64,000 nucleotides of DNA from NCBI GenBank assembly GCA_964249215.1, contig CAXUBE010000001.1, positions 5,292-69,291 on the forward strand. The letters run 5' to 3'. How positions within the stretch are numbered: position 1 is the first letter of the stretch; every line of letters begins with the position of its first letter. Origin of the DNA: an uncultured Rhodopseudomonas sp. Lineage in GTDB: Bacteria; Pseudomonadota; Alphaproteobacteria; Rhizobiales; Xanthobacteraceae. Positions 2,181 to 57,200 of this stretch are shown in pieces. A program made the translations under genes and the position numbers. The notes under the pieces were generated by a model that saw only the letters and a program-made list of their open reading frames with translations, had not been told where the DNA came from and did no database searches.

Positions 2181-2252
2181 CGGGTTCCTTCGCGTCGTTG
2201 AAGGACGCGAGGATGCCGACGCGCCGCCGAAAAGTCCACGCGCCGTCGCGCG

Positions 2253-3026: not shown

Positions 3027-3060
3027 TGGCAGTTCCTCGAAAATGACGGGTGGCGCACGC

Positions 3061-33987: not shown

Positions 33988-34196
33988 AATCCACTTTTGA
34001 CTACTGGTGCGTCAGACCCACGGTGCCGCGCCGCCGCTGAACCTCGCGTCTTCACGCGACATGGATTGAAGTCGCTTCGGGCAAGGTGGCAAGGCTTCTG
34101 AAGAAGCAGGTGGTGGGCCGGAACAAGTCGTGCGGTTGACTTGGTATCTCACCGGTTCAATTTTCGGATCCCGCCACCATGATCGACGTCGTCGTT

Positions 34197-35732: not shown

Positions 35733-35984
35733 GTGCGACGGCTCCTGCTTCGTGATGACGGACGATGACAGCGACGGGATCATCCGAGCGGGTTCAGTTC
35801 ATCCGGAAGATCGTGAAGATGGCAAGCGACGGATCGGGGATCGGAAGGTGTCGCGCCCGCCGAACGCTGGATGCCGGCGACACAGCCGCGCGCGAGGATG
35901 CGCGCTCGAGAAGCCGGGAAAACGTCGCGCTATGGCGTCGAAGGCCGCAGCGCGCGAGCGCCGGGATCAGCAAGCGGCGGTTGT

Positions 35985-37832: not shown

Positions 37833-40800
37833 ATGGTTGATACACCGGTCTTTATCAGCGGATCTTATGATGCTTCCGGCAGGGTTTTGGCTGCGTGGCA
37901 GTATTCCGGTGCGGTCAATTTCATTCTGGCGGTTTTTCAAGGCGAGCCCGCTGGCACATCCTGGATCGCGTCGACTCCGGTCACGGGCTATATCGGAAGC
38001 CTGACGATCAAGCCCGCGTCGCTCGATCCGAGCTTCGCCTATACGGTCGCGGTGGCTGTCGATCAGGGCAACGGCGTCCCCGGACCGTGGAGCGTGCCGC
38101 TGAGCCTTGTGTTCCAGCGGGTCACCGGCATCTTCACCACCTATACCGGCAACGCGCTGACAGTCGGCTGGACGATCCCTTACCCCAGTTCGATCGCGAA
38201 GGTGGCCGTCGCGCTGACAAACACGACCACCGGCATCACGATCAGCAAGACGTCGAGTGGAATCTACAACGACAATGAAGTGACCTTCGCGCTGAAGACG
38301 CCGCTCGCCATCGGCGACGCGTATACGCTGGCCCTGACCGGCGTGAGCGGTACTTTTTCCGGACCGCCTGCGGGTGGGCCGGCTCCCATCGTGGCGGCGC
38401 CGAAGCTGAGCAGCCTGACCTATACGGTCGCAAAAGTCGGGACTGCAAAAATCGCCGCCATCGCCGATGTGGTGTTTCCTGCTCCTGCGCCGCAGGTCGT
38501 CATGCAGTTGTACGAGGACGGTGTCTCGATCCTGCAACAACGCGGACAGGGGTTTGTCGCGCAACTCGATCTCGCCGCGCCGCTGTCGCTTTGGTCGACT
38601 TACACGGTCGGCTTGTTCTATCAGGATGGTTCGAACATCGGGCCTGTCGGCAATCACGGCAACGTCCTGCAAACTGCACCGACGATTGTGTCCACGGCAT
38701 TCGACGGAACCAACGTCACCGTGACCTGGACGATCTTGCCCGGCGATCCAGCGCCGACCGGCGCCCAGGCGACGCTTTATGACGTTGCCAACAAGAACAA
38801 CGTCGTCGGCGCGGGTTTTGCCAACGGCCTGTCAACGACGTTTGCTCCGGACGAGACGCTCGGCGTCACGGGAAACTATGCCCTCGCGCTGTGTCCGCTG
38901 CAGGGTCAATCGCAGGGCGCCGAAGGACCGGCGACGCCCGTCATCGCCGCGACCAGGGCGATCACCTCGCTCGGCTATGACGGCGCGCGGATTCTGGTGG
39001 CCTATGCCGATGCGCTCGGCACCAACGTCACCGGTTACGTGCTGCATCTGATGTCTGGCACGCAGTCGGTGCGACAGATCCGGTCCGGGCTGACCGGCGG
39101 GTTGATCGACATCGCGCTCGATCAGACAACGCCATATCAGGTCGCCGTGCAGGCGGTGGGCGGTGTCGCCACCGGGCCGATCGGCCCCGCCATCACGGTC
39201 ATCACGCAAGTTCCCGCGCTCGGCAACATTGCGCTGAGCGCACCGAACAATGCGCCGCAGGTGGCAGCACAGATCACGCCGCCCGGCGTAATGCCGAACG
39301 GCGCCAGCTATCTCGCTTATCTTTACGAGGGCGACCGGCAAGTCGCGGGGCCGATCACCGCCTCCGGATCGCCGCTGATCGCGGTGTTTTCGATCGACGC
39401 TTTCGGCAAGAGCGGGTTTACAGTCCGCGCTGCCGCAACGGCGACGATCAACAGCGCGACAGTCACGGGTCCGCTGAGCCCTGCTGCGCCAGTGCTCGGG
39501 GCAGCGCCGCGGATCACCTCGGTGATGGTCGAGCCGGATGCAGCCGACGCGACCAGATGGCGCTTCACCATCGAATGGGTCTTGCCCGACGTCGCGCCTG
39601 GCGCACTCGCCACTTCGGCGGTCACGGTGATGCAGGGTGCGAGTGCCGTGGCGACGTCTCCTGACGCGACCGGCACCGGCGTTCAGTTCTCTGTCGCGAT
39701 GGCGAGCATCGACGCCACCAAGCCCGGCAGTATCACGGTCGCCTCCAAGGGCCCGTTTGGTGTGAGCCCTTGCAGCGTGGCCGTGAGCGTGGCCTTCGCC
39801 GCGCCGGCGTTGCGATCCGTCGTCTGCGGCAATCGCGAAATCGCGGCGGACTGGACCTGGTCGCAGGCCGACAGCGCGGTTGCTGCCATCGCCAGTTCCT
39901 ACCGCATCCTGCTTTATGATCTCAGCGTCTCGCCGCCGGCCTTGATCCATGTCTCTGCGTCCACGCAAAGCCTGAGCAGCGGCCTGTCGATGACCGAGGC
40001 CCCGCTCGGCCATCTGACGAATGTGGGCATCGGCATCGAAGTCGATGCCGGCCTGTCGCAATGCCGAAGCGCCGGCAGCCCCACAGCCTTGGTCCTGGAT
40101 CCGCCGGCCATCACATCCAGCGCGGTGTCGGGCACCACGCTGACGCTCGCATGGGCGTCGCCCGCGATCCCGGCGGGTGTGACGATCTCGGGCTATCTCG
40201 CGCGATTCCGCGTCGGTGGCGGTGCGGCTATGACCGCGACGATTTCCGGTACCGCCGCGACCGCCACGATCGATCTCGGCACGATCAGCGGATTGACGGA
40301 TGACCCGATTCAGCCAGCACAGGTGACGCTTGCTGTGCAGGCCTTGACGGTGACAGGCCCCGAGAGTGACGGCGTGCCCGTCCTGCGCCATGCCGCGACG
40401 GCGACGCCGAACGCGATCGCAACCGCCACGACCATCGTGGCGCAGTGGGAGCCTGCTCCCGGACCGGTCGAGACTTACAAGGTCGTCATCGCCAAGGACG
40501 GAACGGCCGTCATGACGGCCTATTCGCCGGTCGCCGTTATCACCGTTCCGAACGCCTCTCAGGTCAAGGACAGCACTTACATGCTCGCCGTGACGCCGAT
40601 GATCGGTGCAGCGGCGGGGCCGGCCAGCCCGTCGCTTGGTCTGGCGCTGATCGCGCCTGCATTGTCCGATGCGGTGTTCGATGGCAAGATCGTGACCGCG
40701 ACCGTGACTCCTCCGGGTATCGGCACCACGCTGGTGACCGGCTATCGGATGATGCTGTCCGTCAACGGTCGCACCACGCAGAGCTATGACGCCCCCTTCG

Positions 40801-41985
40801 GCGGCACCATCGCGATGCCGGTGGATCGTCCGATCGACGCCTCGGCCGCCTATGCGGTCAGCGCAAGCGCGCTCGCCGGAAACGCGGTCGGCCCGCTTGC
40901 CAATCCTGCCGTCATGATCTCCAGTGCCCCGGCCATCACGGCCGTGACATGCACCGGGACGAGCCTGGTCGTGACGCTCGATCCGTCTTCGGTCGCGGTC
41001 GGTGGCACCACGTTGCAGGGATGGCTGTACACAGATGGCATTGTCGGCGATGCGGTGGTGGCGAATGACAACAAAGTCACCTTCACGGTTGCTGCCGGGC
41101 ATGGCTATCAAGTCGCCTCGCAGGCAATCAAGGGCGGCAGCAAGGGACCGCTGTCGAGTCCGATTGCCGCGTTGACCGTTAGTCCGGCACTGGCGAGCGC
41201 AATCTACCGAGACGGACAACTCGCGATCGCCTGGAGCGGCACGGACGGAAACGGCTGCTATCTCGTCACCGTCGCGACCACGGCGGCTCCGGTGATTCAA
41301 TCGCGCGTCAGCGGCCTCGGCACTATTCTCGCGTTCAACGCAGATCCGACGATCAGCTACACGCTCGCCGTCCAGCAGATCGACGGGATCGTCACCGGAC
41401 CGGCAATGGCCGGCACCGCTATCGCCACATCGGGCTGTGCTGTCAGTTCCGTGGTTTTCACCGATACCGCCACGGCGACGATCACTTGGAGCGCGCCAAC
41501 GTCGCAAGCCGCCAGCGTCACACAATACCAGGTCGTGGCGGTCACGACCGACGCCGGCGCCGAACAGATCCTCAAAATCGTATCAGCGCCGACGATGACC
41601 GCGTCCGTATCAACAGCCGGTCTGTCACCGGGGCTGAGTTACGTCGTCGCGGTTCGTCCGGTCATCACCAACGCGACCGGGCCGATCGGCCCCCCGATCC
41701 CGCTGGTCGCATGCCTTCCGTCGGGGCTTGAGGCCTATTACGACGGCCATGCCATCGTCGCGCAATGGACTGCGGCCGCCGACCCCCGCATCACGGGATA
41801 TCACGCGATCATCTCGATCGCCGGACAGAACGACATCCCGGTCGATACCGCATCGACATCGTTCCGGTATGTCTACGACATATCCGGCGTGGCTTCGACG
41901 GCACCGATCGCGGTGAAGGTCGCCGCCTGGGTCGGCAGCGGCTCGATCGGGCCCAATACCGCCGCAGTCGATGTCCGCACCGGCA
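37833..41985 (+). repeat. Array of ~15 divergent FN3-like protein modules (repeat at protein level only)
   Basis: I set the module boundaries by eye from the recurring pattern: PxL/I.S....G..L.V.W, then (I/V)(T/S)GY....., then Y.V.V.A, then GP.S/GP. No nucleotide-level repeat is evident, so the modules are old and diverged. Confidence 0.6.
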
Positions 41986-43190
41986 ATCCGGCCTTCTATG
42001 TCGGCGATCTTCCGAGCGGCGTGGTTCCGGCTGTCTATGCTTGCCCGACCGTGCCGCCCGGCGCGACCGATCTCGTTTTCTATCTGCCCGAACTGTTCGC
42101 CACGCATCAGACGACCGCGATCACACAAGGACCGTTCACGCTCACGCCGATGACGCCGGTCGTGGCACCTTACGCCTATACGGTGAGTATCGCCACAAGC
42201 AGCGATCTGTGGAGTTTTGCGAGCGTTTCAGCGCGGCAGACCATCGCGTCGCAGTTCGCAAGTTTCCTCGCGACCATTGCCGGGACGACGGGGGCGTTCG
42301 TCGAAACGCCGCGCATCTTGCAGCAGACATTGGCCGCAGGGCTGCCGCTCAGCTTCACCGAAAGTCTGTTTTATCGCTACAGCTTCGATCCGTTGATGCG
42401 TTACGTCGATCTGCAAGCCGGCATGCGTCTCGAAATACGCTTTGAAAGCTATCAGTACGTTACCGGCAACAGCGACGGGATCGACGGCTTCGTCACCGGC
42501 ACCTCCGTGGTCTACGATATCGCCGCGCTTCCGGAAGGCTCTGGCCTGGGGTTCATCGCGCTCGATCCGTTTCTCGGCTCGCTGCAGGCGATCAGCTTCG
42601 GTGCGCCACAACAGGGTGGCGCGGGCGGCATCATCGATCTGCAGACAGCGGCATACCGGCGCCCTTTCATCCGGCTGTTCTATCCGGCGAGCTTCCCGTC
42701 GGGACAGAGCACCGGCAGTCCGGATGCCAATCACGCGGTCGCCGTGGTCGCCGCCACGACGTGGAGCGCGCTCGATGGCGTCACCCAAAGCTTCATTCAG
42801 TTCGGCACGTTGCCGGCCGCCTCTGCGACCGTCTCGATCACCTATTTCCGCGGCCGCGCCGTGCTGACGCCATTGATCGCGGTGAGCATCAATGGCGCGA
42901 GCAGCTTCGTGCCGCTGGGTACGACGCTGGGGTCCACCTTCGCCGCGCATGGTCTGATGCCGGCGCTTACCGGCGTTGCCGCCTCGGGGCTTTCGCTGCG
43001 TCGTGCGGTGACGCCCAACCTGTCGCCGACGGAGATCGCATCGGGCATCAAGCTCGCGAACAAACGCCCCGTGATGGCGCTCTATCAGAAGCTCGCCGCA
43101 CTTTCCGATGGCACCACCGTGTTCGACTTGCCGCTGGTGCAAGGCGACGAAATCTTGACCGGCCGCCATGCCGACGCGTTGGCGCGATGA
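37833..43190 (+). CDS. Giant-operon gene 2: 1,785-aa protein with ~15 tandem FN3-like modules and a ~400-aa non-repeat C-terminal domain
   Basis: Codon usage and amino-acid composition are coding-like (Ala/Thr/Val/Gly/Pro rich, not Arg-rich). There are recurrent ~90-aa modules with FN3-type anchors (LTVGWTIP, VTVTWTILPGDP, IAADWTW, LTLAWASP..ISGYLARF, IVAQWEPAPGP.ETYKV, ATITWSAP..VTQYQVV, IVAQWTAA..ITGYHAI), each ending in ..GP.S.P. No signal peptide. Confidence 0.8.
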   Translation: MVDTPVFISGSYDASGRVLAAWQYSGAVNFILAVFQGEPAGTSWIASTPVTGYIGSLTIKPASLDPSFAYTVAVAVDQGNGVPGPWSVPLSLVFQRVTGIFTTYTGNALTVGWTIPYPSSIAKVAVALTNTTTGITISKTSSGIYNDNEVTFALKTPLAIGDAYTLALTGVSGTFSGPPAGGPAPIVAAPKLSSLTYTVAKVGTAKIAAIADVVFPAPAPQVVMQLYEDGVSILQQRGQGFVAQLDLAAPLSLWSTYTVGLFYQDGSNIGPVGNHGNVLQTAPTIVSTAFDGTNVTVTWTILPGDPAPTGAQATLYDVANKNNVVGAGFANGLSTTFAPDETLGVTGNYALALCPLQGQSQGAEGPATPVIAATRAITSLGYDGARILVAYADALGTNVTGYVLHLMSGTQSVRQIRSGLTGGLIDIALDQTTPYQVAVQAVGGVATGPIGPAITVITQVPALGNIALSAPNNAPQVAAQITPPGVMPNGASYLAYLYEGDRQVAGPITASGSPLIAVFSIDAFGKSGFTVRAAATATINSATVTGPLSPAAPVLGAAPRITSVMVEPDAADATRWRFTIEWVLPDVAPGALATSAVTVMQGASAVATSPDATGTGVQFSVAMASIDATKPGSITVASKGPFGVSPCSVAVSVAFAAPALRSVVCGNREIAADWTWSQADSAVAAIASSYRILLYDLSVSPPALIHVSASTQSLSSGLSMTEAPLGHLTNVGIGIEVDAGLSQCRSAGSPTALVLDPPAITSSAVSGTTLTLAWASPAIPAGVTISGYLARFRVGGGAAMTATISGTAATATIDLGTISGLTDDPIQPAQVTLAVQALTVTGPESDGVPVLRHAATATPNAIATATTIVAQWEPAPGPVETYKVVIAKDGTAVMTAYSPVAVITVPNASQVKDSTYMLAVTPMIGAAAGPASPSLGLALIAPALSDAVFDGKIVTATVTPPGIGTTLVTGYRMMLSVNGRTTQSYDAPFGGTIAMPVDRPIDASAAYAVSASALAGNAVGPLANPAVMISSAPAITAVTCTGTSLVVTLDPSSVAVGGTTLQGWLYTDGIVGDAVVANDNKVTFTVAAGHGYQVASQAIKGGSKGPLSSPIAALTVSPALASAIYRDGQLAIAWSGTDGNGCYLVTVATTAAPVIQSRVSGLGTILAFNADPTISYTLAVQQIDGIVTGPAMAGTAIATSGCAVSSVVFTDTATATITWSAPTSQAASVTQYQVVAVTTDAGAEQILKIVSAPTMTASVSTAGLSPGLSYVVAVRPVITNATGPIGPPIPLVACLPSGLEAYYDGHAIVAQWTAAADPRITGYHAIISIAGQNDIPVDTASTSFRYVYDISGVASTAPIAVKVAAWVGSGSIGPNTAAVDVRTGNPAFYVGDLPSGVVPAVYACPTVPPGATDLVFYLPELFATHQTTAITQGPFTLTPMTPVVAPYAYTVSIATSSDLWSFASVSARQTIASQFASFLATIAGTTGAFVETPRILQQTLAAGLPLSFTESLFYRYSFDPLMRYVDLQAGMRLEIRFESYQYVTGNSDGIDGFVTGTSVVYDIAALPEGSGLGFIALDPFLGSLQAISFGAPQQGGAGGIIDLQTAAYRRPFIRLFYPASFPSGQSTGSPDANHAVAVVAATTWSALDGVTQSFIQFGTLPAASATVSITYFRGRAVLTPLIAVSINGASSFVPLGTTLGSTFAAHGLMPALTGVAASGLSLRRAVTPNLSPTEIASGIKLANKRPVMALYQKLAALSDGTTVFDLPLVQGDEILTGRHADALAR

Positions 43191-46100
43191 GCGATCCGGC
43201 CTTCACACGCCTGGCTATCGTCGATCCTTTTTTCGTTCTGGATCTCACCAGCGATGCCGTGGACCCTGGCCATTTTACCTGGGCATTTTTGCCGGCCACT
43301 GCCAGCGCGGCGCTCACTCTGACGCCCGCCCAGACATTCGCGGCCGCGGGGATCTATGTCCTGATCGACCGGCCGATCCGCGATCAGTCCGCATTTCTGA
43401 CGGCGCTGCGATCCTTGCTGCCGGGAATCGGCACGCAAAATCTTCGGTTCTTGTGGATCACCACCGACGGGTCCGATCTCGCGCAGGACTGGCAATTGCT
43501 GCCATTGCGGGCGAGCGCAACGAGCGGCGGGAGCGCGACGCTGACGGCGCCGTTCGTTATCTCGTTCAACGGCGGCTATGCGCTGCAGATTGCCAGCCGT
43601 GCAACGCTGGCGCTGACCGCGAGCGCTTTCACTCTGTCGTTCGCCGGCGACGGGCAGGTGGCGCAATTCAGCTACGGCACCCGCGCGCTGGTGATACCTT
43701 CACCGGTTACGCTGCCTCTCAGCGGCATCGGCGTCGGCTGCTTTGGCTGCACCGCCACGATGACACGGCCCAACAGCGGGCCGAGCGACTTCGAGATGCT
43801 CGGGTTCGAGCTTCGCTATTTCGCACCCGACGACAGCCAGCCGCGGCCGGGACTGGCCCGCTCGTTTCGTTATCCGGTGTTCACGCAGCCGGTGGGAACG
43901 GCGATGTCCCTGACAGGTTCGTTCGATCCGCTGTCGCCGCTCATGCCGTTGCGAACCTATCTGCAATTCGGCAGCTCGCCAGTTCTGCCGTGCTTGTTCG
44001 TTTCCACGACCGGACAGGCGCTCGACGCGACGCCGGTGATGAACCCGACAGTGCCGATGGTTCCCGCACGCATGGTATTTGCACCTTCGCTGACCCACAC
44101 CACGGCGTCGAAAGCCGATCCGTATTACATGTGTCCAGCCGGAGCCTTTGCGATCGCACCCGCAACTCCGGTCGCGCAGAACTTCAGTCTGATGTGCGGT
44201 GCGTCGGGAGTCGAGAACTTCAATCTCGGGAACGCCGGCAGCCTGTTGCATTTCGTTCCCGGTCAGAATGCCTTCGCACCGAAGCTCGGGCAACGGGTCG
44301 GGCACGGTTTTTTCTCCGACGACGGTCCCGACAGCCTCACCGCCACGGGGCAGACGTCGTGGGCCTATCCCGTCAACGTCGCGACAGCGCCGGTGTATTA
44401 CGCCCAGCCTGACGACGCGCAACTCTACACCATTCCGTCGCAGTCGATCGGCGCAGCTAACGCATTGGCGTTCCAGCCCGTGCCGGCGGGCAAGATGCCG
44501 CCGCCAGTCGAAGCACGCGCGCTGCCGATGGTGCCTTACACCGGCATCGCCGCCGGCAACACTGACCTGTTTGAAGAGCTTGAGCGCAGCGCGCTCAGCC
44601 CGGTCCGTCGCAACGTCGTGGCGGCGCTGACCGGCAGTGGGCGGCACGACGCGAAAGCGGACGGTATCGACCTGATCGCCGCAACGCCGGGCGGCATCGT
44701 CGTCACGCTCGACGGCAGCTTGACGCAATGGAAAAGCGTCGTGTTCGGCAACAGCGCGGCCGCGGCCAGTCCCGACGGGCTTGCACGTCACTTCGGTTTC
44801 GAGAATGTCACAGGCGGTTTTCGAGCCGCCATTCAGACCAACCAATTGTTCAGCGTGATAGCCGATCCCGCCGGCCTGAGCGGGATGATGACCCAGACCT
44901 ATCGGCTTAACGGGGACGCGGCCGCATCGCTGCGCCATCATGCGCGACGCACACGGGACGCCGATCTCGATCGTCTGGTCGCCGCGGCCGACGGGCGGAT
45001 CGGCGGGGTGGCGCCACAAGTGTTTTCGTCTTTCGCTGCATTGTTCGCCGAGATCGAACACGCCGCGTTGACCGACGCCGACATTTCGCACTACCGCGAG
45101 CTGTTCGAGCAGGCGACCGTGGACGGCGAACTGTGCATCGAGCAATGGACCTTCAAGCTGTCGCCGACCAACTGGCGCAGCGACACCATCATGATTCTCA
45201 AATATGCCGGTCGCAGCATCGACGATCTCGTCAGCGATCCCGGCGCGTGGACATGGCAGCAGGCCGCGATCCGACCAGACGGTTCGCTGCAACAGACCCA
45301 GGCGCAGCTCCGCGAGATCATCGCGGCGGCCCGCACGTCCAACGCCAAAACGCCTGCCGACCGGGTGCCGGCCTATACCGGTTTCCTGCGTGACATCATC
45401 GACGATCCGCAATGGGCGGGTGTCCTGTTTCTCAACGTCAAGGTGCCACCGACGAGCTTGCCTCGGCAATTGCAGGGTCTCGCGGCGGGCATCGACTTCG
45501 CGCAATTCAAGGCGCACCACTTCGCGATATCGGCGACGCCGATCGATATCAAGGGCGGCACGCTCGATACGCGGCCGAGCAGTCTGCGGGCCTTGATCGA
45601 CTATCAGGATCAAAGCGACCAGTTCGTCAACGCCACGGTCGACTATGCATTCAAGGTCATCGTTCTGCAGGTGTTGTTCGAGAACTCCGCGATCGTCAAT
45701 TTCTTCAGCCAGATCCAACTTCAGATCAACACGATGTTCTCCGCGCCGGTGCTGCTCTCCCCCACCGAACGCGGCAACAACGTGGTGCTCACCGGAACGT
45801 ATCAGCGCAACGAGGACGGCAGCGGCTATTACGATTACGCCCAGAGCGGCTCGAACCGGTTCGCCGTGCGCAGCAATGTGCTCGACGAGGTCGAGACCCT
45901 GAGTTGCCAGTACGTCAGCGCCGATCCGCAAACCATCGGCAACGTGACGGTCATCGGTTCGCGGTTCGAGTTCACCGGTCGGCTGCGGTTCTTCGAACTC
46001 GACTATTTCGACGCCTTCTCGTTCGGGCCGATCTTCGATGCCGAAAGCAATCAGCAGATCTCCGACGGATATCTGGCATTTTCCAACCTCGTCATCGGCA

Positions 46101-46735
46101 TGACCTTTCCGCAGGACCATCCCGACCACGTGACGTTCGGATTCGATGCCGGCGCGCTCGGCTTTAATCTGGCGCAGAGCGTGGCGCGGCCGATGAGTCT
46201 GTTCCGGCATTTCCCGCTCACCTTCTCCGGCCTCATCGCGGTGCCGCAACCGCCCGCGAGCGCAGGCCAGCCGACCGCAGTCACGCCGGGCAGTCTGGGC
46301 TATATCGAATGCACGACGCCGCTGCAGCCCGGCCATCCAAATCCGCCATGGTACGCGCTCGCCTTCGATCTCGACTTGGGAACTCTGGGGTCGCTGGCCG
46401 GCAATCAGAAGCTGGCGGTCGGCATCATCAGCGCATGGGGCAACAGCGGCGATGCCTATAACGTTTACGTCGGCCTCAAGCTGCCGGGCTCCAACAGTGC
46501 GAAGCCGGAAATTCCCATCGAGGGTCTGTTGAAGCTCGCTTTCGGCAAAATCGAATTCACGGCGAGCGACGGCGCGACCGGCCGCATCTACATGCTGAAG
46601 CTGCGCCAGATCGTGTTGCGCATTCTGCTGCTGAGCTTCCCGCCCGGCAATCTCGACCTGTTTCTGTTCGGCGATCCGGCGGCGCGCAGTCGCAACAGCG
46701 CGCTCGGCTGGTACGCCGCCTATGCGGACGAGTAA
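43187..46735 (+). CDS. Giant-operon gene 3: 1,182-aa protein without recognisable domains
   Basis: The ATG at 43187 overlaps the TGA of gene 2 (ATGA). Composition is coding-like. The 426 nt that the track ORF adds upstream of this ATG overlap gene 2 and were rejected. No signal peptide or TM segment seen at the N-terminus (MSDPAFTRLAIVDPFFVLDL). Confidence 0.75.
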   Translation: MSDPAFTRLAIVDPFFVLDLTSDAVDPGHFTWAFLPATASAALTLTPAQTFAAAGIYVLIDRPIRDQSAFLTALRSLLPGIGTQNLRFLWITTDGSDLAQDWQLLPLRASATSGGSATLTAPFVISFNGGYALQIASRATLALTASAFTLSFAGDGQVAQFSYGTRALVIPSPVTLPLSGIGVGCFGCTATMTRPNSGPSDFEMLGFELRYFAPDDSQPRPGLARSFRYPVFTQPVGTAMSLTGSFDPLSPLMPLRTYLQFGSSPVLPCLFVSTTGQALDATPVMNPTVPMVPARMVFAPSLTHTTASKADPYYMCPAGAFAIAPATPVAQNFSLMCGASGVENFNLGNAGSLLHFVPGQNAFAPKLGQRVGHGFFSDDGPDSLTATGQTSWAYPVNVATAPVYYAQPDDAQLYTIPSQSIGAANALAFQPVPAGKMPPPVEARALPMVPYTGIAAGNTDLFEELERSALSPVRRNVVAALTGSGRHDAKADGIDLIAATPGGIVVTLDGSLTQWKSVVFGNSAAAASPDGLARHFGFENVTGGFRAAIQTNQLFSVIADPAGLSGMMTQTYRLNGDAAASLRHHARRTRDADLDRLVAAADGRIGGVAPQVFSSFAALFAEIEHAALTDADISHYRELFEQATVDGELCIEQWTFKLSPTNWRSDTIMILKYAGRSIDDLVSDPGAWTWQQAAIRPDGSLQQTQAQLREIIAAARTSNAKTPADRVPAYTGFLRDIIDDPQWAGVLFLNVKVPPTSLPRQLQGLAAGIDFAQFKAHHFAISATPIDIKGGTLDTRPSSLRALIDYQDQSDQFVNATVDYAFKVIVLQVLFENSAIVNFFSQIQLQINTMFSAPVLLSPTERGNNVVLTGTYQRNEDGSGYYDYAQSGSNRFAVRSNVLDEVETLSCQYVSADPQTIGNVTVIGSRFEFTGRLRFFELDYFDAFSFGPIFDAESNQQISDGYLAFSNLVIGMTFPQDHPDHVTFGFDAGALGFNLAQSVARPMSLFRHFPLTFSGLIAVPQPPASAGQPTAVTPGSLGYIECTTPLQPGHPNPPWYALAFDLDLGTLGSLAGNQKLAVGIISAWGNSGDAYNVYVGLKLPGSNSAKPEIPIEGLLKLAFGKIEFTASDGATGRIYMLKLRQIVLRILLLSFPPGNLDLFLFGDPAARSRNSALGWYAAYADE

Positions 46736-46744
46736 GGCAACCAT

Positions 46745-48271
46745 ATGCCCGAGACGATCACCATCATGTACTGGAACGTCCAGGATCTCGGCACCTTCAG
46801 CCCCTGGCGCCGCGGCACCAACTATCAGCCGATCTGCAACTTCATCGCAGGCATGGCCGAGCAGAATAACGTTGACGTGTTCTGCCTGATGGAATCACGC
46901 CGCGATTTCGTGCCGCATATTCCGACACTGTTGGCGGCATTGGATGATAGTTTCGGGAATGCACACAAGAATGCGGACTGGTACTACGATTGGATTCCAG
47001 GCTCTATCAAAGGAGATCTCAATACGCGTTTTGCCGAAGACGACACCCCGGAAGAAAAGCTCAAGCGGCGTAAGGTCTCTGTCTTCCAGGATCGTGAGGC
47101 CGCACGCCGCACCCCGACGCAATTTGATGAACTTGCCTACACCACCACCGGCCACTACGAAGGCTACGTCATTTTATGGAACAGAAGTTCTGCCGCGTTC
47201 GACATGCTCATACGTAATGCGGGACCATCGGGCGGAGTCGTGACCGGTCTCAACGGTGACCATGCGGCCGCATATCACGCGATCAACCTGGTGTTCGAAG
47301 GCCGCGCGGTCACGGGATGGGTTCCTCGTGCTCTTGTACATAGCCAGCACTATCAGCTCAGCGCATCCGGCTATGATCCCGCCAATCCGGGAAATACCGA
47401 TTGGGCGCATCTGGATTTCTCGCAACGCTTGTTGGCCAGCGGACGCTGGTACGAGGTCCGGCGCCCGGCTTACTGCACGTTGGAGATTGCCAACCAGGTT
47501 GGTGATGCTGCCAAATATCTGCCTATCGTCGTGTTCCATGCGCCGAGCGCCGAAGGCAGCGGCGCCTTCGGCGGGACCGACCGATGCGGGTTGAGCCGCC
47601 CGATGTATCAGGCGCAACGACTGGACGGGCAGTGGGTCAACGCCAACCGTGTCGTCGTTGGCGGCGATTACAATGTCAGCACCCAGCATGAGTATAATTA
47701 TGTCTACACGACTTTTACGGCGGACCGTGGCGCGGACGATGACACCGGCGCGGGATGCGCACAATTCGTACCTTCGCGCAGCGGCACCGGGCAGGAGGAT
47801 TTATCGAAATCGATCGTGCGTGTCACGCAGCCCAGTCCGCTGGGTGGTGGCTATCGCAATCTGATCCAGATTGAACCGGCGCTAGGTCATATCGATAGCA
47901 ACGATCTCTATCGGTCGTTCGCGGTCGACAACATCTTCACGCGCGGGTTCTCCGCCGCCGTCGCGCCGCTGGCCAATTATGAAGTCTACAATCTGCAGGT
48001 TCAGCTTCAGACCAGCCAAAGCGCCGTCGTAACGCTGTCCAAGGCAGCGTTCTACAATTTCATCCAGCAGGAAACCCGAACTCTTGCCCGCGACGGCACC
48101 GGCAATCCGCTGTCGTTTGGTACTGTGCTGTTTTATACCAACATCCTCGACTATCCGCAGATGATGGCGCAGCTCAACGGCCGCCAGTTCACCTCGCCGC
48201 GGCGCACTGCCGAATTCACCAACACGTTCCTGAGCGACCACATGCCGCTCATCGTTTCCGTCACGACCTGA
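46745..48271 (+). CDS. Giant-operon gene 4: endonuclease/exonuclease/phosphatase (EEP, DNase I-like) fold enzyme with large insertions
   Basis: EEP motif series in the correct order: IMYWNVQDLG (Asn11), DVFCLMESRRD (Glu50), VVFHAPS (His265), VVGGDYNVS (Asp308/Asn310), AVDNIFTRG (Asp395), FLSDHMPLIVSV (Asp498-His499). 508 aa against roughly 250-300 aa for minimal EEP enzymes. No signal peptide. Confidence 0.8.
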   Translation: MPETITIMYWNVQDLGTFSPWRRGTNYQPICNFIAGMAEQNNVDVFCLMESRRDFVPHIPTLLAALDDSFGNAHKNADWYYDWIPGSIKGDLNTRFAEDDTPEEKLKRRKVSVFQDREAARRTPTQFDELAYTTTGHYEGYVILWNRSSAAFDMLIRNAGPSGGVVTGLNGDHAAAYHAINLVFEGRAVTGWVPRALVHSQHYQLSASGYDPANPGNTDWAHLDFSQRLLASGRWYEVRRPAYCTLEIANQVGDAAKYLPIVVFHAPSAEGSGAFGGTDRCGLSRPMYQAQRLDGQWVNANRVVVGGDYNVSTQHEYNYVYTTFTADRGADDDTGAGCAQFVPSRSGTGQEDLSKSIVRVTQPSPLGGGYRNLIQIEPALGHIDSNDLYRSFAVDNIFTRGFSAAVAPLANYEVYNLQVQLQTSQSAVVTLSKAAFYNFIQQETRTLARDGTGNPLSFGTVLFYTNILDYPQMMAQLNGRQFTSPRRTAEFTNTFLSDHMPLIVSVTT

Positions 48272-48279
48272 GCGCACGC

Positions 48280-51200
48280 ATGGATTGGCAGGATCTTCAG
48301 CCATCCGTCGATGGCCTTATCTCCGGGGGCGTGCTGACCCTTGACCAGACTCACAACCTGAATTCACCCTCGATCCTTGCTCTGCTGACGTCGACCCGCC
48401 TGCTCGCGGTTGTCGCCGACGTGTCCTCCAAGGGTTATCAGGGCACGCACTACGTGGTGCAGGGGGCGATCGAGCGCGCAAATTTCCCTTACACCATCGG
48501 CAGCGCGGGCAATCCGCTGCCGGTGACGCTGGATTTCTACGTCCAGGATATGCTCGCGCAGATTACGGCGACGGTGACGCTGCCGTCGAATTACACGCTC
48601 GCGATGAGCTTCCCTTACATCCTTGACCAAGCGGTCAACCTGTTTCCGATCGGCGCGGCGAGCATGACATTCGCCTCGGTGGGAAACGATCCGCCGGATG
48701 CGCCGTCGAGCATTCTCCTGCCGCCGCCCTATAAGGGCATGTCGATCGCCGGCACGATGTCGGGGTTGGCTGCCAATCCGCTCACCAGCAGCCTGTTGTG
48801 GTTCATTCCCGACCGCGACGTCTTTCCGGTCAGCGGTCCGGTGATCATGAGGGAAGGCGTGAATTACCTCGGCGAGACCGAGTACCGGCCGACAATGTAT
48901 CTGATCGGTGCGCTGCTGGAGCCGCTGTCGCTCGGACCGTTCCGTTTCGGCGTCTCGCTGATGGCGCAGTCGACCTACGCCAGGATCACCGGCTCCGATC
49001 AGTCCTCGTTCTACAGCGGCGCCTACTACATCGGTCAGTTGCAGGCCGCGATCACCCGGCAGCAGGGGATCGACGTGCTGGTCCAGATGCAACTGCTGGA
49101 CGGCTACCAGAGCCTGTACAGTTTCGAGCTGTCCAAACCGATCCCCCTCACCAGTCTCAATCAACTCCAGGACATCGCCGCGCTCTCTCCCGGCGAGAGC
49201 TATTCGGCGATGATCCCAAGTGAAGTACCGACCGGCCTGAGGTTCGAACTGAACGAACTGACCTTCATCGTCGCGCCGACGCTCAGGACGCTGGCCTCGA
49301 TGACCCTTGGCGTCAAGCTGACGGTGCAGTGGGAGGTCATTCCCGGAGTCTTCACGCTTGAGAATATGTCGCTGCGCTTCGTGGTGCCGAACCCGGCCGC
49401 GGAGCTATCTGGAGTCGTTGCGACTGCAGCCGCCGAGTTGCACATCTTCGACGGTATCTTCGATGTCTCGATGACGTTTCCGAGCCTGCGCATTCTCGGC
49501 CAGATCAGGCAAGGCACGCAGATCACCTACGCCGCGGTCTCGACGGCGCTGTTCGGGAAGGTGCTGGAGCTACCGGGCATCGCCGATCCGACGCTGTACG
49601 AACTTTCGGTCGATATCGAGCCGCGTCAGCAAACCTATCGGATATCGGCCGTCGTTCTCGACCTGCTGTCGGTCGATCTCGGCTTCGTCACAATCAACCT
49701 CGACGAGGTCGATATTGCCTTTACCTACAGCTCGCTGTCACAGGCAGGCCGCTTCGGGGCGCGGTTTGAACTTGTGACCGCCGGCAACGACGTTGAGGCG
49801 AGCGACGATCCCCTGACCTTTGGCTTTAGCGTGAGCGCCGCAGGCATGCGGACCGGTGGCGTGACGACGTGGACAGTCGAAGGCGGCATCGGCGCCGACC
49901 ATGTGATTCCGCTCGGAACTTTGGTGGCTCGATTGCTGGGCTTCTCGGTTTCGCAGGATATCAGCATCCTCGACATCGAGGATGTCTTGGTGTCGATGAC
50001 GATCCCGAGCACCGGGCCGACCAGCTTCTATTTTGAGGGCGCGGCGCGATCGCGTTGGACCATCGGCATCTTCGGCGGCTGGTCGATCGAGATCGCCGCG
50101 GCCGCACGGCTGGAGCGCATTCCCGCCGAAAGCATTTCGCTCCTGACGCTGCCGGCGATGCGCCCGCTCGACACGGCCGGCATGCAGACCAGCGGCGAAA
50201 TCTCCGGCCGCCTCGCGATCAACAATTTCAATCTGGCCGTGGTCTATCAGTTCGCGCCCAACAGCCGGGTTCTGATCTTCCAGGCGAGCTACAAGCAGGC
50301 CACCCTGACTGCCGCGCTGTCCAAGGGGAAGGATGCGAAAGGGCAGGACACTTATCTGCTCAAGTTCAATCTCGCCGGCGTGACGCTTGGAGACATCATC
50401 ACCTGGATGGTCAACCTGGCCCGACCGGGCAGCGACTTTTCACTGAGCGCGCCGTGGGACGTGCTCAACGGCATCGATCTGTCACGCTTCACGCTGGTCG
50501 TCGATCTGATTCAGAAGACCGTGACGATCAGCTACGAGGTCAATGCCGATTTCCTCTTCATCAAGCTCAAGTCGATCGGCCTCACTTATTACCGCAACCA
50601 GGGCAAGGGGTCGGTCAAGATCGCCGTCGAAGGTTCCTTCATCGATGTGAGCTATGGCGACGGCAACCCGCCGCTCGAATGGGACTTGCTTGACGATCCA
50701 CCGCCGGCGGTGCCGGGCGAGACCGGGTTGTTCAAGCTGCGCTATCTCGGGCTCGGCCAGCACATTTCGCTCGATTCCTACGCGCAGATCGACACTGTCG
50801 AGCAGGCGATCGAGGGGCTGCGCGCGGCCATGCGGCCGCCCGAGGCGGCCGATGAGAACCCGTTGCTGCAATCGGGCACCGTCGCGCTCAATTTCGACGC
50901 CAACAGCCACTGGCTGTTCGGCGCCGATTTCACCGCACTCGGCGCGCTGCAACTCTCCATGGTGTTCAACGATCCGTACATTTACGGCGCGCTGATCCGT
51001 CTGATGGGCGAGAAGGCCGGGGCGCTGGCGGGGCTGCGTTTCGAGTTGCTCTACAAGAAGGTGACTGACGACATCGGCGTCTTCAAGGCCGACTTCATCA
51101 TGCCCGATGCGTTTCGCCAGCTCGAATTCGGCGAGGTTTCGATCACGCTCGGCCGCGTTCACGTGGACATCTACACCAACGGCAATTTCTTCGTCGACCT

Positions 51201-54200
51201 CGGTTTTCCGCACAATCGCGACTTTTCCAATTCGTTCGGCTTGCAAGTCTTTCCGTTCGCCGGATGGGGCGGGTTCTATCTCGGTGCGCTCACCGGCGCG
51301 ACCTCGATCAAGGTGCCGCGGATCGACAACGGCCGGTTCGATCCGGTCATCGAGATCGGTCTCGGCCTGTCGGTTGGCGTCGGCAAAACCATCGAGAAGG
51401 GACCGCTTTCCGCGGGAATGACGCTGACCTTCGAAGCCATCGTCGAAGGCGTATTCGCTGACTTCGCGCCGACCGACCGATCCGCGGCGAGCGGTTTCTT
51501 CTATCGCGTCGAGGGCACCGCCGCATTGGTCGGCAGGGTGTTCGGCAAGGTCGACTTCTTCGTCATACGCGTCGACTTCAGCGCGGAAGCGAGCGCCCGC
51601 GTCACGCTGGTCATCGAGGCGCATCAACCGATCTATGTCCAGATCGAGCTTCACATCGACGTTCGCGCCAGCATCAAGATCTTGTTCGTGCGCATCCACT
51701 TCAGTTTCTCGCTGACGCTCGACCTGGCCTTCACCATCGGGCACGCGACGTCGACGCCATGGCAGATTGCCGATGACCAGACCGCCCGGCTTGATCTGTT
51801 GGCAGCACGCAGCGGTCCGCACTGGCCGTTCCCGGCGATGCGGCCACACTACAAGCGGCTCGTGCGCTCCACGCGGCTGCTTCGTCATGTCGCCTCCGGT
51901 AACGGCCCGTCCGCCTATGGTCTCCTGGGCCGCAAGGAGATTCGTCACAGTTCGCTACCGCCGCTTTATCTGCAGAAGGCCGCTGCCGGCACGTTGACGT
52001 GGACGCCAGCCAATGTGTTTCCGGCAGGCAAGATCGAAACGCTGCGGCTGTTATGCACTCCCGGTTTCACCGTGGCCGATCCGGGGATTGGCAGCAGCGG
52101 CACGCCGGGAGCCTATCGCCTGGTCCTGACCATGGGCGCGGAAACCAGCCGTCACATCCAGTTGCGCGGCAATGCCGGGCTCGGCGTCCCAAGTGTTGCT
52201 CACAGCCTGCAGGCCACCGCGGTCGCCGATGCGCCGTTCAACCTGTTCATCGAGGCGTTCCTGCGCTGGGGGCTCAACATTGTGAAGACCGGCGATCAGG
52301 TCAGCGCCGTCGCGCTCGATGAACTTGCAGCCAACCTGCGCCTGCCCGCAACCGCAGGCACCGGGTTCTCCTACGCGAACCTGATCGCCTTCCTCAAGGA
52401 CAACTTCCTCATCTCGATCGCCGGAAAGCCCACCGGTGCAACCCCCGACGAGGTGCCGGTGGCGGCATTCCCGATGCTGCCGCTGTTGTCCTTCACCGCC
52501 GACAAAGGCGCGCCGGTCGCGTTCGACCAGCCGCAATATATGCTCACCGCCGATTACAGGGCTGCACTTGACACGATCTTTTACCAGCTTTCGGCGACCG
52601 GCAAGCCCCGTCGCGATTTGCAGGACGATGCCGTGGCGGAGAGCTTCGCCCAATTCATCTTCCGGGAATGCTGCTTGATGGTGACGCAGGCGGCTGTCGA
52701 TGCCTGCATCGGGCTCTTGGAATCCTTTGCCTATAAACTGGAAGCAACCACCACGCTGAAGGGCATCGTCGATGCCTTCGCACCACTCCATATTGCCATC
52801 AGCGCCCGCGGCGGCCAGAAGCTCGCCCATATCGCTGCGTTATTCGGGACCGATATCGAACGATTGCAGGCGCTCAATCCGCCGCTCGTCGCCAAGGCGC
52901 GGCTTGCCGCCGATGATACCGTTGTGGTGCCCGTCGAATTGACCGTCGGTGCGATCATCGACGACAATCGCGATCACCCGCTCGCCGCAAGGAGTTTTCA
53001 GGTCGATGCCGCGCCGCATCAGATCCGGGGTGACCGTAGTCTCAATCAGATTGCCACCGACTACGGGCTCGAAACGGCAGTGAATCTCGTCACGGGACAG
53101 ACTGCGACGCAACGCGAGCTGCTGCGGCCCGACGCCAGCATCATCTGCTCCGTTCTGCAATACACCTCGCGCGTCGGCGACACGGTGGCGTCGATTGCCG
53201 CGCTCTATCTGGCGCGGCGGGCCCAACTCGGCGATGCGACCGCGCGCGCGGCGTTGGTGCCCGACATCGCGCAATGGTTCGCGCAGGCTGTGGCCGACCT
53301 CAATCCCAACCAGGACTTCGGCAGCGTCGTGCCGGCGAATACGGCGCTGAATGTACCGAAGACTTATGGCAGCGTCGCGACCACGACGTCATACACGAGC
53401 TATGCCGGAGACACGCTCGACACGATTGCCGATGCGCTCTCGCTGCTCAATCTGGCTTCACCGCCTGCCGTCCTCACCGCGTACCAGGTGGCGATCGTGC
53501 AGGCCAATCCGAGCCTGCCAAATCCGATTCCGGTCGCGACGGCAGTGAAGATTCCGGCTTTTACGCTCACGCTTCCCGCGCGCGTCGCCCTCGACGATCT
53601 CGCCGCAGGTTTGCTGCAGACGCTGGCGAAGACGATCGGGCTCATCGCCGACAATGCCGCCGCTTTGACGCCACACACCGTCATCGTGCTTCCGCCCTTT
53701 ACCATCACGACGACGGCAACGGACACGTTCGCTGGCTTGGCGCAGAAGTACGATCTCGGTTACGACGCGCTTGGCAACGCGGCCGAGTCGGTTGCTGGAA
53801 TCTTCGCGACCGCGCCGACGGCAACGGTCACGCTCAAGGATCTGCCGCGCGTCGGCGTCGAACAGCTCATCTCCCAGCTCATCACCGGACAGGGACTGGC
53901 CAACCAGATCAGCGGGCAGATCTCGCGCTTCCTGCTTCATGGGGTGCGGGTGCCTTCGCCTACCGACGCTCATCCGCTTACCGCGCCGCTGGTTTCGATC
54001 CTTGATCTGAGCGGACAGCAATTTCCAGGCCCCGATCCGGAGCAGTATGGCAACGGCGAGACCTATCCGATCGTGGTCTCGCTCACCGATTCCGCCGACC
54101 AGAGCTGGATCAGCTTCACCGCCACCGAGACCTTGCAGCAGGGCGAGACCCTGCCGGCGTTGCGCGCGCGCATTGCCGATTTCGATCGCCACAATCCGGC

Positions 54201-57200
54201 CGCTGCAACTCATCCAGAGCGGATACGCAGCGGCCTCATCGTAGGCGTTGCCGATGTCACCACGCTGACCATCCCGATCACGCAAGCGGACATGATCGCG
54301 GGCTATCCGACGCGCACGTTCACACCGGGCGTCGTAACCCCGCTTGCACCGCTGCCGCTGTATCGTCTGGTGCCGGTTCGCTACGGCGTGCAGCAATATC
54401 TCGGATGGCAGGCCGGCGCGCCGATCGTACTTCCTCGGTCCGGTACGCCGATCGATGCGCTAACCGGCGGCCCGGGAATCTGGATGTTCCCGGACACGCT
54501 GCTCGGTGCCGTGAGCGGTCAGGTTGGTGCAAGCGCCGCCTACAAGCTGTTGCAAGTCCCCGCCACCGATCTCAGCAGTTCGACGACGCCTGTCGAGGCG
54601 GCGTCCTACGGATGGGCCACACTCATTCCGTTCGGGGCCAGGCAGATCGCCCGCGATGCCGATCCTGACAAGGTGCTGCCGAACACCTATGGCGTCGGCG
54701 GCGCCGCCGCCGAGGATCGTCCGCGGCTGCTGGCGCTGTATCAGCACCTTGCCACCATGACGGCGGCCGATCTCAAGAAGGTGCGGCTCTCTCTGCTGCA
54801 TCGGCCGCGGTCCGACACCACGCGGCCAGAGGGCCTAGCGTCGATTCCGCTCGATCTTGCATCGACCTATGTCCTGAAGGCCAACCTCACCACGGAAACG
54901 CGCAGCGGCGCACAACGGCTGCGCTCTCTCGGTCTCGACGACGAGAGCTTGCGCGACATCCACGCCGCGCCGATCTCCGATCCGGCTGCCTTCACCGGCC
55001 TGCTGTGGGCCGCCAGTATCACCAACAGCGGCGGATTCTATCTGAATTATCGCGGCAGCAAAGGCGAAGGCCTGCCGCCCGGCATTTTCGGCAAGGATGG
55101 CGGCGGCGGCGAAATCTGGCTGATGGTCTTGCTCCCCGACCAGACCACCGGCGCACCGTCGCAACGCGGTTTGTACGGGTTCAACAACGCCGCGGTCACC
55201 GGCGGCAATCTTCTGCCGGCCGACTGGCAGTTGTTCATGGAAATGGGAACCAACGCGCCAACCGCGAAAGTGGCGAGCGTCGATCCCGGCGTGATTGCGT
55301 TCTCGACGGCGTTGAACAACCCCGACCTCGCGCAACCCTCCGCGGCTCGGACCGCCAGCGAGCTGTTCAGCCTGATCGCCTATGGCGTGGCGGAAACAGC
55401 CGCTTTCAAGGCGAGCTATCAGGCATTGCCGGTCGGGCCGGAGGAGTCGGCGCAGAAACAGTTGAACGTCGAAATGGTGGAGCGCAAACGGATCGACGCG
55501 CCAGCCGACGCGCCTTATTGGCTCTTCCATCAGGGCCTGCGCATCGCGGGGCAAGCCAGGATATTGCTGGCACCGAACACCAGTGGCCTGCCGCCGCCCG
55601 CACAGGATCCCTATGCCGGCATCGGCGCCGACGCAGTCGCCAACCTGAACTTCCAGTATCGCGATATTTTCGGCAACCAGACGCTGCCTGCCGACGCCTG
55701 TCAGAATATCGCTTTCCCGGTGGGCTACACCGATCCGGTGGTCGGCGTCGGTCAGTGGCCGGGGGCGGTGCCGTCTTACGTTGTCGCACCCGGACAACCG
55801 TCCAATCTCATTGTGTCGATCGGCTATCAGATGCTGGGCGCGCTGCCGGGCATGACCGACCCGCTGGATGGCGTGCAGCTCCGCACGACGAAGACCATCG
55901 AGCGGCTGTCGCTGGTTTACTACCAGATGATGCGGCCGGACCTTGCGGTGCAGCTCACCACCACGCTGCCGGTCGCGCCCGACATGGGCGAGACCTACAC
56001 CACCATCGCTAAAGCCGCGTTCGCCGATGTTGTCGCCGCAGCCTATCTGTTCCTGAACGGAACGCTGCAATTGCGTCAGGCCGTCGCGGATCTCAGCGTC
56101 GCGCCGACATTGGCGCAAGTGCAAGGCACGTACCGCGTCACGGCGGGCCAGATCGCTGCGATCAACGCCGCCGTCCCGATCGATGCGATCTTCGCAGCCG
56201 CCCCGACCGTGCCGCAGTTCTATACATTCGCGCCCGGTGACAGCGCGGCGTCGATCGTCGCGGCCCATGCATCGGTACCCGACGCAAAGACATTCCTGGA
56301 GCAAAATGACGGTCTTGGCCTTACGCCGGGTAAAATCCTGTCAGCGCCGGCCCGTACCATCACCAGCGGCGTTGCCGGGCCTTCGCTTGCCAAGCTCGCA
56401 GCCGTAAATCTGTGTTCGGTGGGCGGGTTGGGTAGCGCCAACGCTACGGCGTCCGGTTGTCTCGCCCCCAAGCTCACGCTGACTTTCGAGACGATCAGTC
56501 TGACCGCCAACGATGACGAGTCGCTGGCCCAACTCGCCAGCCGCTTCAGCGACGCATTGCTCGGGCTCAGCGTGGGGACCGCGCCGTCCGCGTGGAAGGT
56601 GACGCCCGCCGACCTTGCCAGCGCAAATGCCGGCGTCGCTCCGTTCTTTGCCGACAATCAAATCATCACGATACCGGATGCGCTGGTCGTGAAGAACGAC
56701 ACGCTGGCCAGCATCGCGGCTCGCCACAGCGAGTACAGCGTGGACAGCCTTTCGTCGAGAAATACCGGTGTGGCGGACGTCTTCCCGTCAGGTCTCGCCA
56801 CGCTTTTGACCGCCACCCAGATCGCGCCGGTGCAGGTGACGCTCGGTGATTTCGCCGCCGGCCATGGTCTTACCGGCGATCAACTGGTTGCCGCGAACGG
56901 CACGACGTTACTCAAGACCACTGCGCCGTTGGGCATACCGGGCATGACGAACCTGCCGGCCGTCGGCGGGGCTGTCGTTGCTTACTATCTCGCCGCCGGT
57001 CAGACCCTCGCCGCGGCGGGCAGCGTTTTCGCGCAGACCGCGGAAGCTTTCGCCACCACCAATCAGGCGCTTCCCAATCGTTTCTCTGGATCGCCCGTGT
57101 TCATCAGCGGCGCGCATCGCGTGCAGGCGAACGATGCGGATTCGTTTGCAACGTTGTTGATCAAGGCGGAGGCGGCCGGCGTTGCCAGTACGATCGCCGA

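Follow-up and report, generated by a model that had tools for sequence, protein, structure and literature searches.

What is a predicted EEP-fold enzyme doing among genes for giant proteins of no obvious function? This question is raised by a five-gene operon in a 64,000-nucleotide stretch of DNA (here called the window) from an uncultured Rhodopseudomonas sp. (GenBank assembly GCA_964249215.1, contig CAXUBE010000001.1, positions 5,292 to 69,291 of the forward strand). An earlier note, made from the letters of this DNA, had proposed that one gene encodes an EEP enzyme with an intact catalytic set and two large insertions, a plausible payload between binder-like proteins. We found that the gene has many relatives, that a gene for a giant partner protein directly follows it in distant phyla, and that this pairing and the surrounding cassette point to an uncharacterised multi-protein machine and not to an ordinary housekeeping enzyme. 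We give about an even chance to the whole of our preferred account, in which a complex that targets surfaces is put together in the cytoplasm and the protein, probably a nuclease, is its enzymatic part. The gene and its catalytic codons, in window coordinates, are:

46745..48271, + strand: EEP-fold (DNase-I-like) phosphodiesterase gene, an ATG-to-stop open reading frame (ORF) of 508 aa
46775..46777, + strand: N11 codon, aligning with DNase I N7 (metal/phosphate site)
46892..46894, + strand: E50 codon, aligning with DNase I E39 (Mg2+ ligand)
47537..47539, + strand: H265 codon in the FHAPS motif, an invariant residue and probable counterpart of DNase I H134 (LHSAPS)
47666..47674, + strand: D308-Y-N310 codons in the GGDYN motif, aligning with DNase I D168/N170
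47927..47929, + strand: D395 codon in the AVDNIF motif, an invariant residue and probable counterpart of DNase I D212 (AYDRIV)
48236..48241, + strand: D498-H499 codons in the SDH motif, aligning with DNase I D251/H252

Searched directly, the window protein gave no real match in Pfam, in NCBIfam, by phmmer against the PDB, or with an eight-sequence profile against the PDB, and matches to neuroglobin and AhtL from these direct searches were dismissed as noise. The earlier note had suggested a search with Pfam family PF03372, which misses the window protein itself but matches 67 of 91 aligned family members (E ≤ 0.01, best 1.5e-11), none of which hit another Pfam family. These 91 sequences are 21-76% identical to the window protein, and the relative P0009 (27% identity) reached 37.5 bits with PF03372, whose cut-off is 24.5. 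When a profile of all 91 was compared with the PDB, DNase I was the best match (E = 2.4e-4), followed by DNase1L3, two Bacteroides EEP proteins, nocturnin, TDP2 and sphingomyelinase, the last of these weak (E = 0.24-0.33); ExoIII was a very weak match (E = 0.91). Three collinear segments make up the DNase I match and pair N11/E50 with N7/E39, D308/N310 with D168/N170, and D498/H499 with D251/H252, and a global hidden Markov model (HMM) alignment to DNase I covered the N-terminus only.

Structure prediction led to the same fold. An AlphaFold (AF2) model built from eight sequences was poor (predicted local distance difference test, pLDDT, 50) and was replaced by a model from the 91-sequence alignment, which reached pLDDT 92.9 and a predicted template-modelling score (pTM) of 0.93. 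In a Foldseek search of the PDB all of the best 50 matches were EEP-fold proteins, and the predicted structure thus has the four-layer alpha/beta sandwich of the fold. Human and bovine DNase I were at the top (E = 8e-8, target-normalised template-modelling score 0.62-0.66), with ANGEL2, CNOT6L, EEPD1, TDP2 and others behind them and the Bacteroides EEPs also close, while the viral structures matched in BFVD were likewise EEP-fold proteins. Sphingomyelinase was absent from the best 50 Foldseek matches, and CdtB was absent both from these and from the profile matches in the PDB. The EEP fold and intact catalytic set of the earlier note were therefore supported, by the profile alignment to DNase I, the high-confidence model and the PF03372 matches of relatives, but its likeness to CdtB or sphingomyelinase was not, since the nearest proteins are DNase I, DNase1L3 and generic bacterial EEPs.

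The ordered EEP catalytic set (N, E, H/Y, D-x-N, D, D-H) is present in the window protein, and each motif sits exactly where it had first been read (W10-N11, E50, H265, G307-D308-x-N310, D395 and S497-D498-H499). An alignment of the eight closest relatives has W10, N11, E50, H265, D308, N310, D395, N396, S497, D498 and H499 invariant. Across the 91-sequence alignment there are 14 invariant columns (W10, N11, E50, W79, E139, R239, H265, G307, D308, N310, D395, D498, H499 and P501), with S497 conserved in at least 90% of members and not invariant. The catalytic residues are also kept in every EEP copy among 23 locus copies, tandem paralogues included, the sole gaps being contig-end truncations or frameshifts. 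This degree of motif conservation far exceeds chance. We infer the assignments of H265 and D395, because their best local alignments to DNase I (KYLPIVVFH-APS against KEFAIVALHSAPS for H265, AVDNIF against the AYDRIV of D212 for D395) are not significant as segments on their own. A comparison that covered the DNA-contacting positions of DNase I (R9, R41, Y76, R111, Y175 and Y211) and its E78-H134 pair aligned R41 with R52 and R9 with Q13, and by eye E139 and R239, both invariant, could plausibly correspond to DNase I E78 and R111, in segment alignments that are not significant. The DNase I sequence used for the motif comparison was checked against the three aligned profile segments.

Codon-position composition of the gene looks coding, with GC content of 0.59/0.45/0.70 at the first, second and third positions (GC1/2/3) in a window of 62.6% GC. 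Its GC3 is below that of the other operon genes (0.76-0.79) and inside the range of the flanking host genes (0.65-0.79). The encoded protein has neither a signal peptide nor a transmembrane segment. On the strength of its motifs and predicted fold, the window protein is very probably an active EEP phosphoesterase.

A profile search of 1.84 billion representative sequences found 282 clusters (50% identity) at E ≤ 1e-3, including 95 at E ≤ 1e-30. Matches in genomes came from a Rhizomicrobium metagenome-assembled genome (MAG), Streptomyces sp. DSM 15324, and MAGs of Acidobacteriota and Aminicenantes; those in metagenomes came from varied JGI and ENA environmental samples, including soils. The median length in the family is 490 aa, ranging up to 638 aa, around a core of about 470 aa that comprises the DNase-I-like sandwich and four conserved insertions. 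The family thus appears to be an undescribed, widespread EEP subfamily with a conserved expanded architecture. For 90 of 91 members, no more than 11 aa separate the catalytic Asn from the N-terminus, which excludes classical secretion signals for the enzyme.

Some variants of this plan were seen. Three members (P0106, P0143 and P0148) carry C-terminal extensions of 220-630 aa that resemble, by eye, Ig-like (Big-type) repeats; the P0106 extension gave no significant match to PDB sequences. The EEP gene is also duplicated in tandem at three loci of the cassette kind called Type 1 below (L002 11581-13112, L015 3914-6257 and L023 3089-5389), with paralogues 52-75% identical and catalytic residues intact. 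One EEP copy in L002 and one in L023 are split into two ORFs, possibly by a frameshift or an assembly error.

The chief new finding concerns the gene that follows. In the window this gene encodes a giant partner:

48280..60498, + strand: giant partner protein, 4072 aa, starting 8 nt past the EEP stop codon
48280-50139, + strand: conserved N-terminal module of the giant, aa 1 to about 620, common to DUF6603 proteins

Loci were gathered by similarity of the EEP protein alone, and their six-frame ORFs were scanned with HMMs built from the window operon and from neighbouring genes. Of the distinct loci, 18 had downstream DNA, and in each of them the gene right after the EEP gene is a giant gene that opens with the same ~600-aa module. 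We therefore consider it highly probable that the EEP protein and the giant partner form a functional unit. No case was found of an EEP domain fused to the N-terminal module of the giant protein.

Beyond this module, the window giant has a highly conserved middle region (aa ~620-1250) and degenerate LysM-like repeats (aa ~1500-3100), with 7 LysM-like motifs counted against 1.4 expected and an iterative search that stopped at 3 repeats. The N-terminal module is homologous to the N-termini of DUF6603 proteins (BLASTP E = 1e-22; hhalign probability 100, E = 7e-56). The DUF6603 domain itself was not found in the window giant by an HMM built for it, by hhalign of the full N-terminal halves, or by hhalign of the conserved middle region. 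PDB sequence searches with operon protein C (described below), the giant protein, the N-terminal-module profile and the middle-region profile found no relative. The N-terminal module also had no match in a large protein database, whether searched singly or as an alignment of 12 sequences; the word index of this database probably misses giant proteins, because clear orthologues exist in the fetched loci.

The window protein is about 250 aa longer than the 260-aa DNase I, and we located the added sequence from the spacing of catalytic residues relative to bovine DNase I numbering and from the AF2 model. Four extra regions emerged, at about aa 86-138, 147-240 (the largest, beta-rich), 326-394 and 407-496 (helical), and they are family-wide, with column occupancy mostly 0.5-1.0. 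Longer family members expand the same insertion points. Of the two insertions described in the earlier note, the one at aa 400-490 agrees with the helical region; the one at aa 60-135 agrees only in part, since aa 53-85 form a core helix and strand in the AF2 model, and the large region at ~147-240 had been missed. Within the first extra region lies a clade-specific segment:

47015..47104, + strand: charged loop, aa 91-120, probably disordered (pLDDT ~60), with KLKRRK resembling a nuclear localization signal (NLS)

Only about 7-9% of the family has this loop (column occupancy 0.07-0.34), and the charged patch noticed at first reading, EDDTPEEKLKRRK, does lie within it, at about aa 98-110. Its basic cluster is kept as K-[RK]-x-[RK] within the close clade.

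Upstream of the EEP gene, the window operon encodes three further proteins:

36118..37782, + strand: operon protein A, 554 aa, with a C-terminal Hint/BIL-like autoprocessing domain at aa ~373-473 (Pfam Hint_2, E = 0.006) and a basic tail
about nt 37234-37536, + strand: Hint region of protein A, starting at the Cys in HCLAAGTEI
37833..43190, + strand: operon protein B, an fn3-domain protein of 1785 aa, ending in an ATGA overlap with the start of C
43187..46735, + strand: operon protein C, 1182 aa without a known domain, its stop codon 9 nt ahead of the EEP start codon

Loci of Rhizomicrobium, Streptomyces and metagenomes likewise have a conserved gene for protein C ahead of the EEP gene. The Hint region of protein A resembles PDB 8w20 from a Streptomyces umbrella toxin (E = 1.3e-3), an entry that belongs to the umbrella toxin paper (PMC11062931). 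No toxin domain is placed behind this Hint region, because only about 50 residues follow it, including a basic RKRRRTRPERVR cluster. The EEP gene had been described as the only obvious enzyme of the operon, which holds with the qualifier that protein A has a weakly matching Hint autoprocessing domain. NLS-like basic clusters were noted at two places in the operon, KLKRRK in the EEP loop (47015-47104) and RKRRRTRPERVR in the tail of protein A (37680-37720). None of the five window operon proteins has a transmembrane-like segment.

Comparison of loci revealed two kinds of five-gene cassette that share the EEP gene and the N-terminal-module gene as a pair. Type 1 is the kind found in the window, and it was also seen in Rhizomicrobium, in Streptomyces, in one Acidobacteriota MAG and on several metagenomic contigs. 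Its full order, seen in the window, Rhizomicrobium and two metagenomic loci, is A (~555 aa), B (1600-1785 aa, fn3), C (~1180 aa), EEP and giant (>3000 aa); the Streptomyces locus retains a B-like C-terminus, C, EEP and giant. In Type 2 the EEP protein is 600-640 aa long, the protein encoded next, of 1380-1650 aa, combines the N-terminal module with DUF6603, and three more conserved proteins join the pair. One of these accessory proteins is fibre-like, combining Laminin_G_3 with an interchangeable C-terminal tip that is either Collar plus T4 Gp10_C, C1q, or a Peptidase_S74 tail-spike chaperone. Such differing tips on a common body follow the tip-swapping pattern known from phage receptor-binding proteins. 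Between the two types, the accessory proteins have no detectable homology. In an AT-rich genome a short gene for a Collar-domain protein precedes a 1356-aa EEP family member. These tip-bearing genes were noted at L016 4183-7140, L019 5332-8202, L010 7301-9997 and L028 1-844.

An ORF at 34179-35768 (+, 529 aa) was considered as a sixth operon gene and rejected as a 15.5% Arg shadow of the thiamine pyrophosphate (TPP)-enzyme gene at 34197-35783 (-); the operon therefore starts at 36118. Promoter and terminator scans of the boundaries were uninformative. As the earlier note had observed, an immunity gene is missing: we saw no small downstream ORF with coding character and no immunity-like ORF. 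The flanks hold ordinary metabolic and transport genes, for a TPP enzyme, a LysR regulator, muconate-pathway enzymes and ABC transporters. A 201-aa ORF at 29750-30355 (-) matches only profile positions 1-128 of 270 of 4-hydroxyphenylacetate 3-hydroxylase, and may be a truncated gene or pseudogene in an aromatic-degradation cluster.

None of six proteins scanned matched a PADLOC defence model, and the operon proteins had no match in PHROGs. No homologues were found in 50,697 phage genomes, PLSDB plasmids or IMG/VR viral contigs. Pfam and PHROG scans of the operon and flanks found no sheath, tube or baseplate, and no capsid or terminase was detected in the cassette. Domain scans of the operon proteins saw no secretion-system, NTPase, STAND or helicase domain. 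Literature searches on DUF6603, on EEP with tail fibres and on EEP with giant effectors found nothing relevant, including no paper that mentions DUF6603.

We propose that the EEP protein is a metal-dependent (Mg2+) phosphodiesterase, most likely one that cleaves DNA. A DNA endonuclease is the most probable activity because DNase I is nearest by two measures, profile and fold, and DNA as the substrate comes close to an even chance. The EEP gene is translationally coupled to the giant gene, and the enzyme would dock on the ~600-aa module of the giant. The complex would be assembled in the cytoplasm in the manner of phage tails or tailocins and then released, to act on the surface or interior of other cells. 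Cytoplasmic assembly is probable because signal peptides are absent from all components, as they are from phage tails and tailocins. Fibre, LysM-like and lectin-type parts would do the targeting, and the EEP subunit would supply the sole hydrolytic chemistry. An antagonistic or delivered role for such a complex is a tentative suggestion, somewhat more doubtful than not. The payload-between-binders idea of the earlier note is compatible with the strict EEP-giant pairing and with lectin- or tail-fibre-like accessory proteins.

Other explanations fit parts of the same evidence. The enzyme might be directed at the cell envelope as a phosphodiesterase or depolymerase, cleaving teichoic acids, phosphodiesters of capsule or lipopolysaccharide (LPS), or phospholipid head groups in a receptor-destroying or wall-opening role, as phage fibre and spike enzymes do. 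The EEP fold spans sugar-phosphatases and lipid phosphodiesterases, and a mannosyl-6-phosphatase (4c1r), the Bacteroides EEPs and sphingomyelinase are among the profile matches; the eighth match in BFVD is a predicted tail-fibre protein of Citrobacter phage CR8 (485 aa) with an EEP fold; the LysM-like, Laminin-G, C1q and Collar domains of the partner proteins bind glycans or surfaces; and for an envelope enzyme a missing immunity gene is expected. DNase I nevertheless tops both the profile and the fold comparisons, with sphingomyelinase at only E = 0.24-0.33, and the W-N-x-Q-x-F-G, FHAPS and SDH-P motifs resemble those of DNase I, so that we regard an envelope-directed enzyme as unlikely, if still a serious contender.

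It is very unlikely, in our judgement, that the cassette is an intracellular defence against phages or mobile elements, in which the giant and fibre-like proteins would sense phage parts and the EEP nuclease would degrade DNA. Such a system would explain why the cassette proteins have no signal peptide or transmembrane segment, why a nuclease is combined with very large partners and no immunity gene, and why the cassette appears to move between distant phyla, and tips derived from tail fibres could act as decoys for phage proteins. Against it, PADLOC returned no match and no NTPase, STAND or helicase domain was detected, while LysM, fn3, Laminin-G and C1q domains are typical of extracellular proteins and the flanks are unlike a defence island. 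A housekeeping repair enzyme of the ExoIII/apurinic-apyrimidinic (AP)-endonuclease type, or a non-catalytic relic, that lies beside large genes by chance has almost no probability. The EEP superfamily does include ExoIII and APE1, and ExoIII is a profile match (E = 0.91), but a chance neighbour would not show strict gene pairing across phyla, the family-specific insertions are unlike a standard repair enzyme, DNase I is much closer than ExoIII, and the invariant catalytic set speaks against a relic.

Several points weigh against the account we prefer, that of an enzymatic subunit in a cytoplasm-assembled, surface-targeting complex. The cassette contains no genes for secretion, lysis or injection and no immunity gene, which fits poorly with a nuclease toxin that is made in the cytoplasm. 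Membership of the EEP superfamily is reached through transitive homology and a predicted structure, because the window protein scores nothing directly. The margins of DNase I over ANGEL2, CNOT6L, EEPD1, TDP2 and the Bacteroides EEPs are small, which makes DNA uncertain as the substrate. Equivalence of the catalytic residues comes from alignment, invariance and the predicted fold and not from an overlay of coordinates, and for H265 and D395 the equivalence to DNase I is drawn from invariance, order, motif likeness and position on predicted strands. Docking of the enzyme on the ~600-aa module is suggested by gene order only.

What makes the locus worth pursuing is that a large EEP subfamily, of at least 282 clusters at 50% identity, is missed by standard domain searches, and that it belongs to a five-gene cassette of giant proteins conserved in Alphaproteobacteria, Streptomyces and Acidobacteriota alike, which may in turn represent a new kind of system. 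Its partner modules are without relatives in the PDB, and DUF6603 occurs in no paper found by literature search. The EEP enzyme offers an experimental way in, because it is the only part of the cassette with predictable chemistry, and a cultivable Streptomyces strain carries an orthologous cassette. The furthest-reaching proposal, which we think quite unlikely, is that EEP and giant form the core of a new class of non-contractile toxin particle, decorated with tail-fibre and lectin parts and assembled in the cytoplasm of soil bacteria across phyla, with the EEP enzyme as a delivered genotoxin. For the window clade the targets of such a particle could be chitin-walled eukaryotes (fungi, protists), in a scheme resembling cytolethal distending toxin (CDT). 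Pointers to a eukaryotic target could be the NLS-like cluster in the EEP loop, the basic cluster at the end of protein A and the LysM-like array; LysM domains also bind chitin. A delivery particle of this sort, if real, would be a new kind of protein weapon among those of soil bacteria.

Set beside known systems, the cassette shares features with several and coincides with none. DNase I and DNase1L3, secreted EEP-fold enzymes of vertebrates, share with the window protein the collinear N/E, D-x-N and D-H motifs and the flavour of N-x-x-x-F-G, H-(S)-A-P-S and S-D-H-x-P, and DNase I is its nearest EEP subfamily, by small margins. The window protein is nonetheless not of the DNase I family proper, because it is only about 10% identical, lacks the N-terminal secretion signal and has four large insertions that account for its extra ~250 aa; it is also the obligate neighbour of a giant. 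Cytolethal distending toxin and typhoid toxin share a logic with the locus, namely an EEP enzyme encoded between genes for carbohydrate-binding partners and no immunity gene. CdtB is the nuclease A subunit of these AB toxins, whose B subunits are lectin-like, and it needs nuclear import, and the charged loop of the window enzyme has an NLS-like basic cluster. No CdtB-specific similarity was found, however, among the profile matches or the best 50 Foldseek matches, and the genes alongside encode unrelated giants of 1182-4072 aa instead of cdtA/cdtC or pltA/pltB products such as the ricin-like CdtA/C or PltB; Sec signals are absent, and the hosts are soil bacteria and not animal pathogens. Polymorphic toxins carry a C-terminal toxin domain on a carrier and come with an immunity gene; here the EEP enzyme is a separate polypeptide, and only the Hint domain of protein A recalls such systems.

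Phage tail fibres, tailocins and extracellular contractile injection systems (eCIS) resemble the cassette in the swapped tips of the Type 2 fibre proteins and in the lack of signal peptides, and differ from it in that the cassette is without detected sheath, tube, baseplate, capsid or terminase and without a PHROG match. Proteins with DUF6603 (PF20248), a domain to which no function is assigned, have an N-terminal ~600 aa homologous to that of the window giant, which is itself without the DUF6603 domain. The Streptomyces umbrella toxin (UmbA/B/C; PMC11062931) consists of multi-protein, lectin-decorated antibacterial particles of soil bacteria, as the complex proposed here would be; the likeness of the cassette to umbrella toxins and tailocins is one of general design only. 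No other homology to Umb proteins was detected, and the Umb toxin is a C-terminal domain of UmbC with an immunity gene, where the cassette has a separate enzyme without one. The two systems are alike in that the Hint region of protein A resembles the UmbC entry 8w20, and in that an orthologue of the cassette occurs in Streptomyces.

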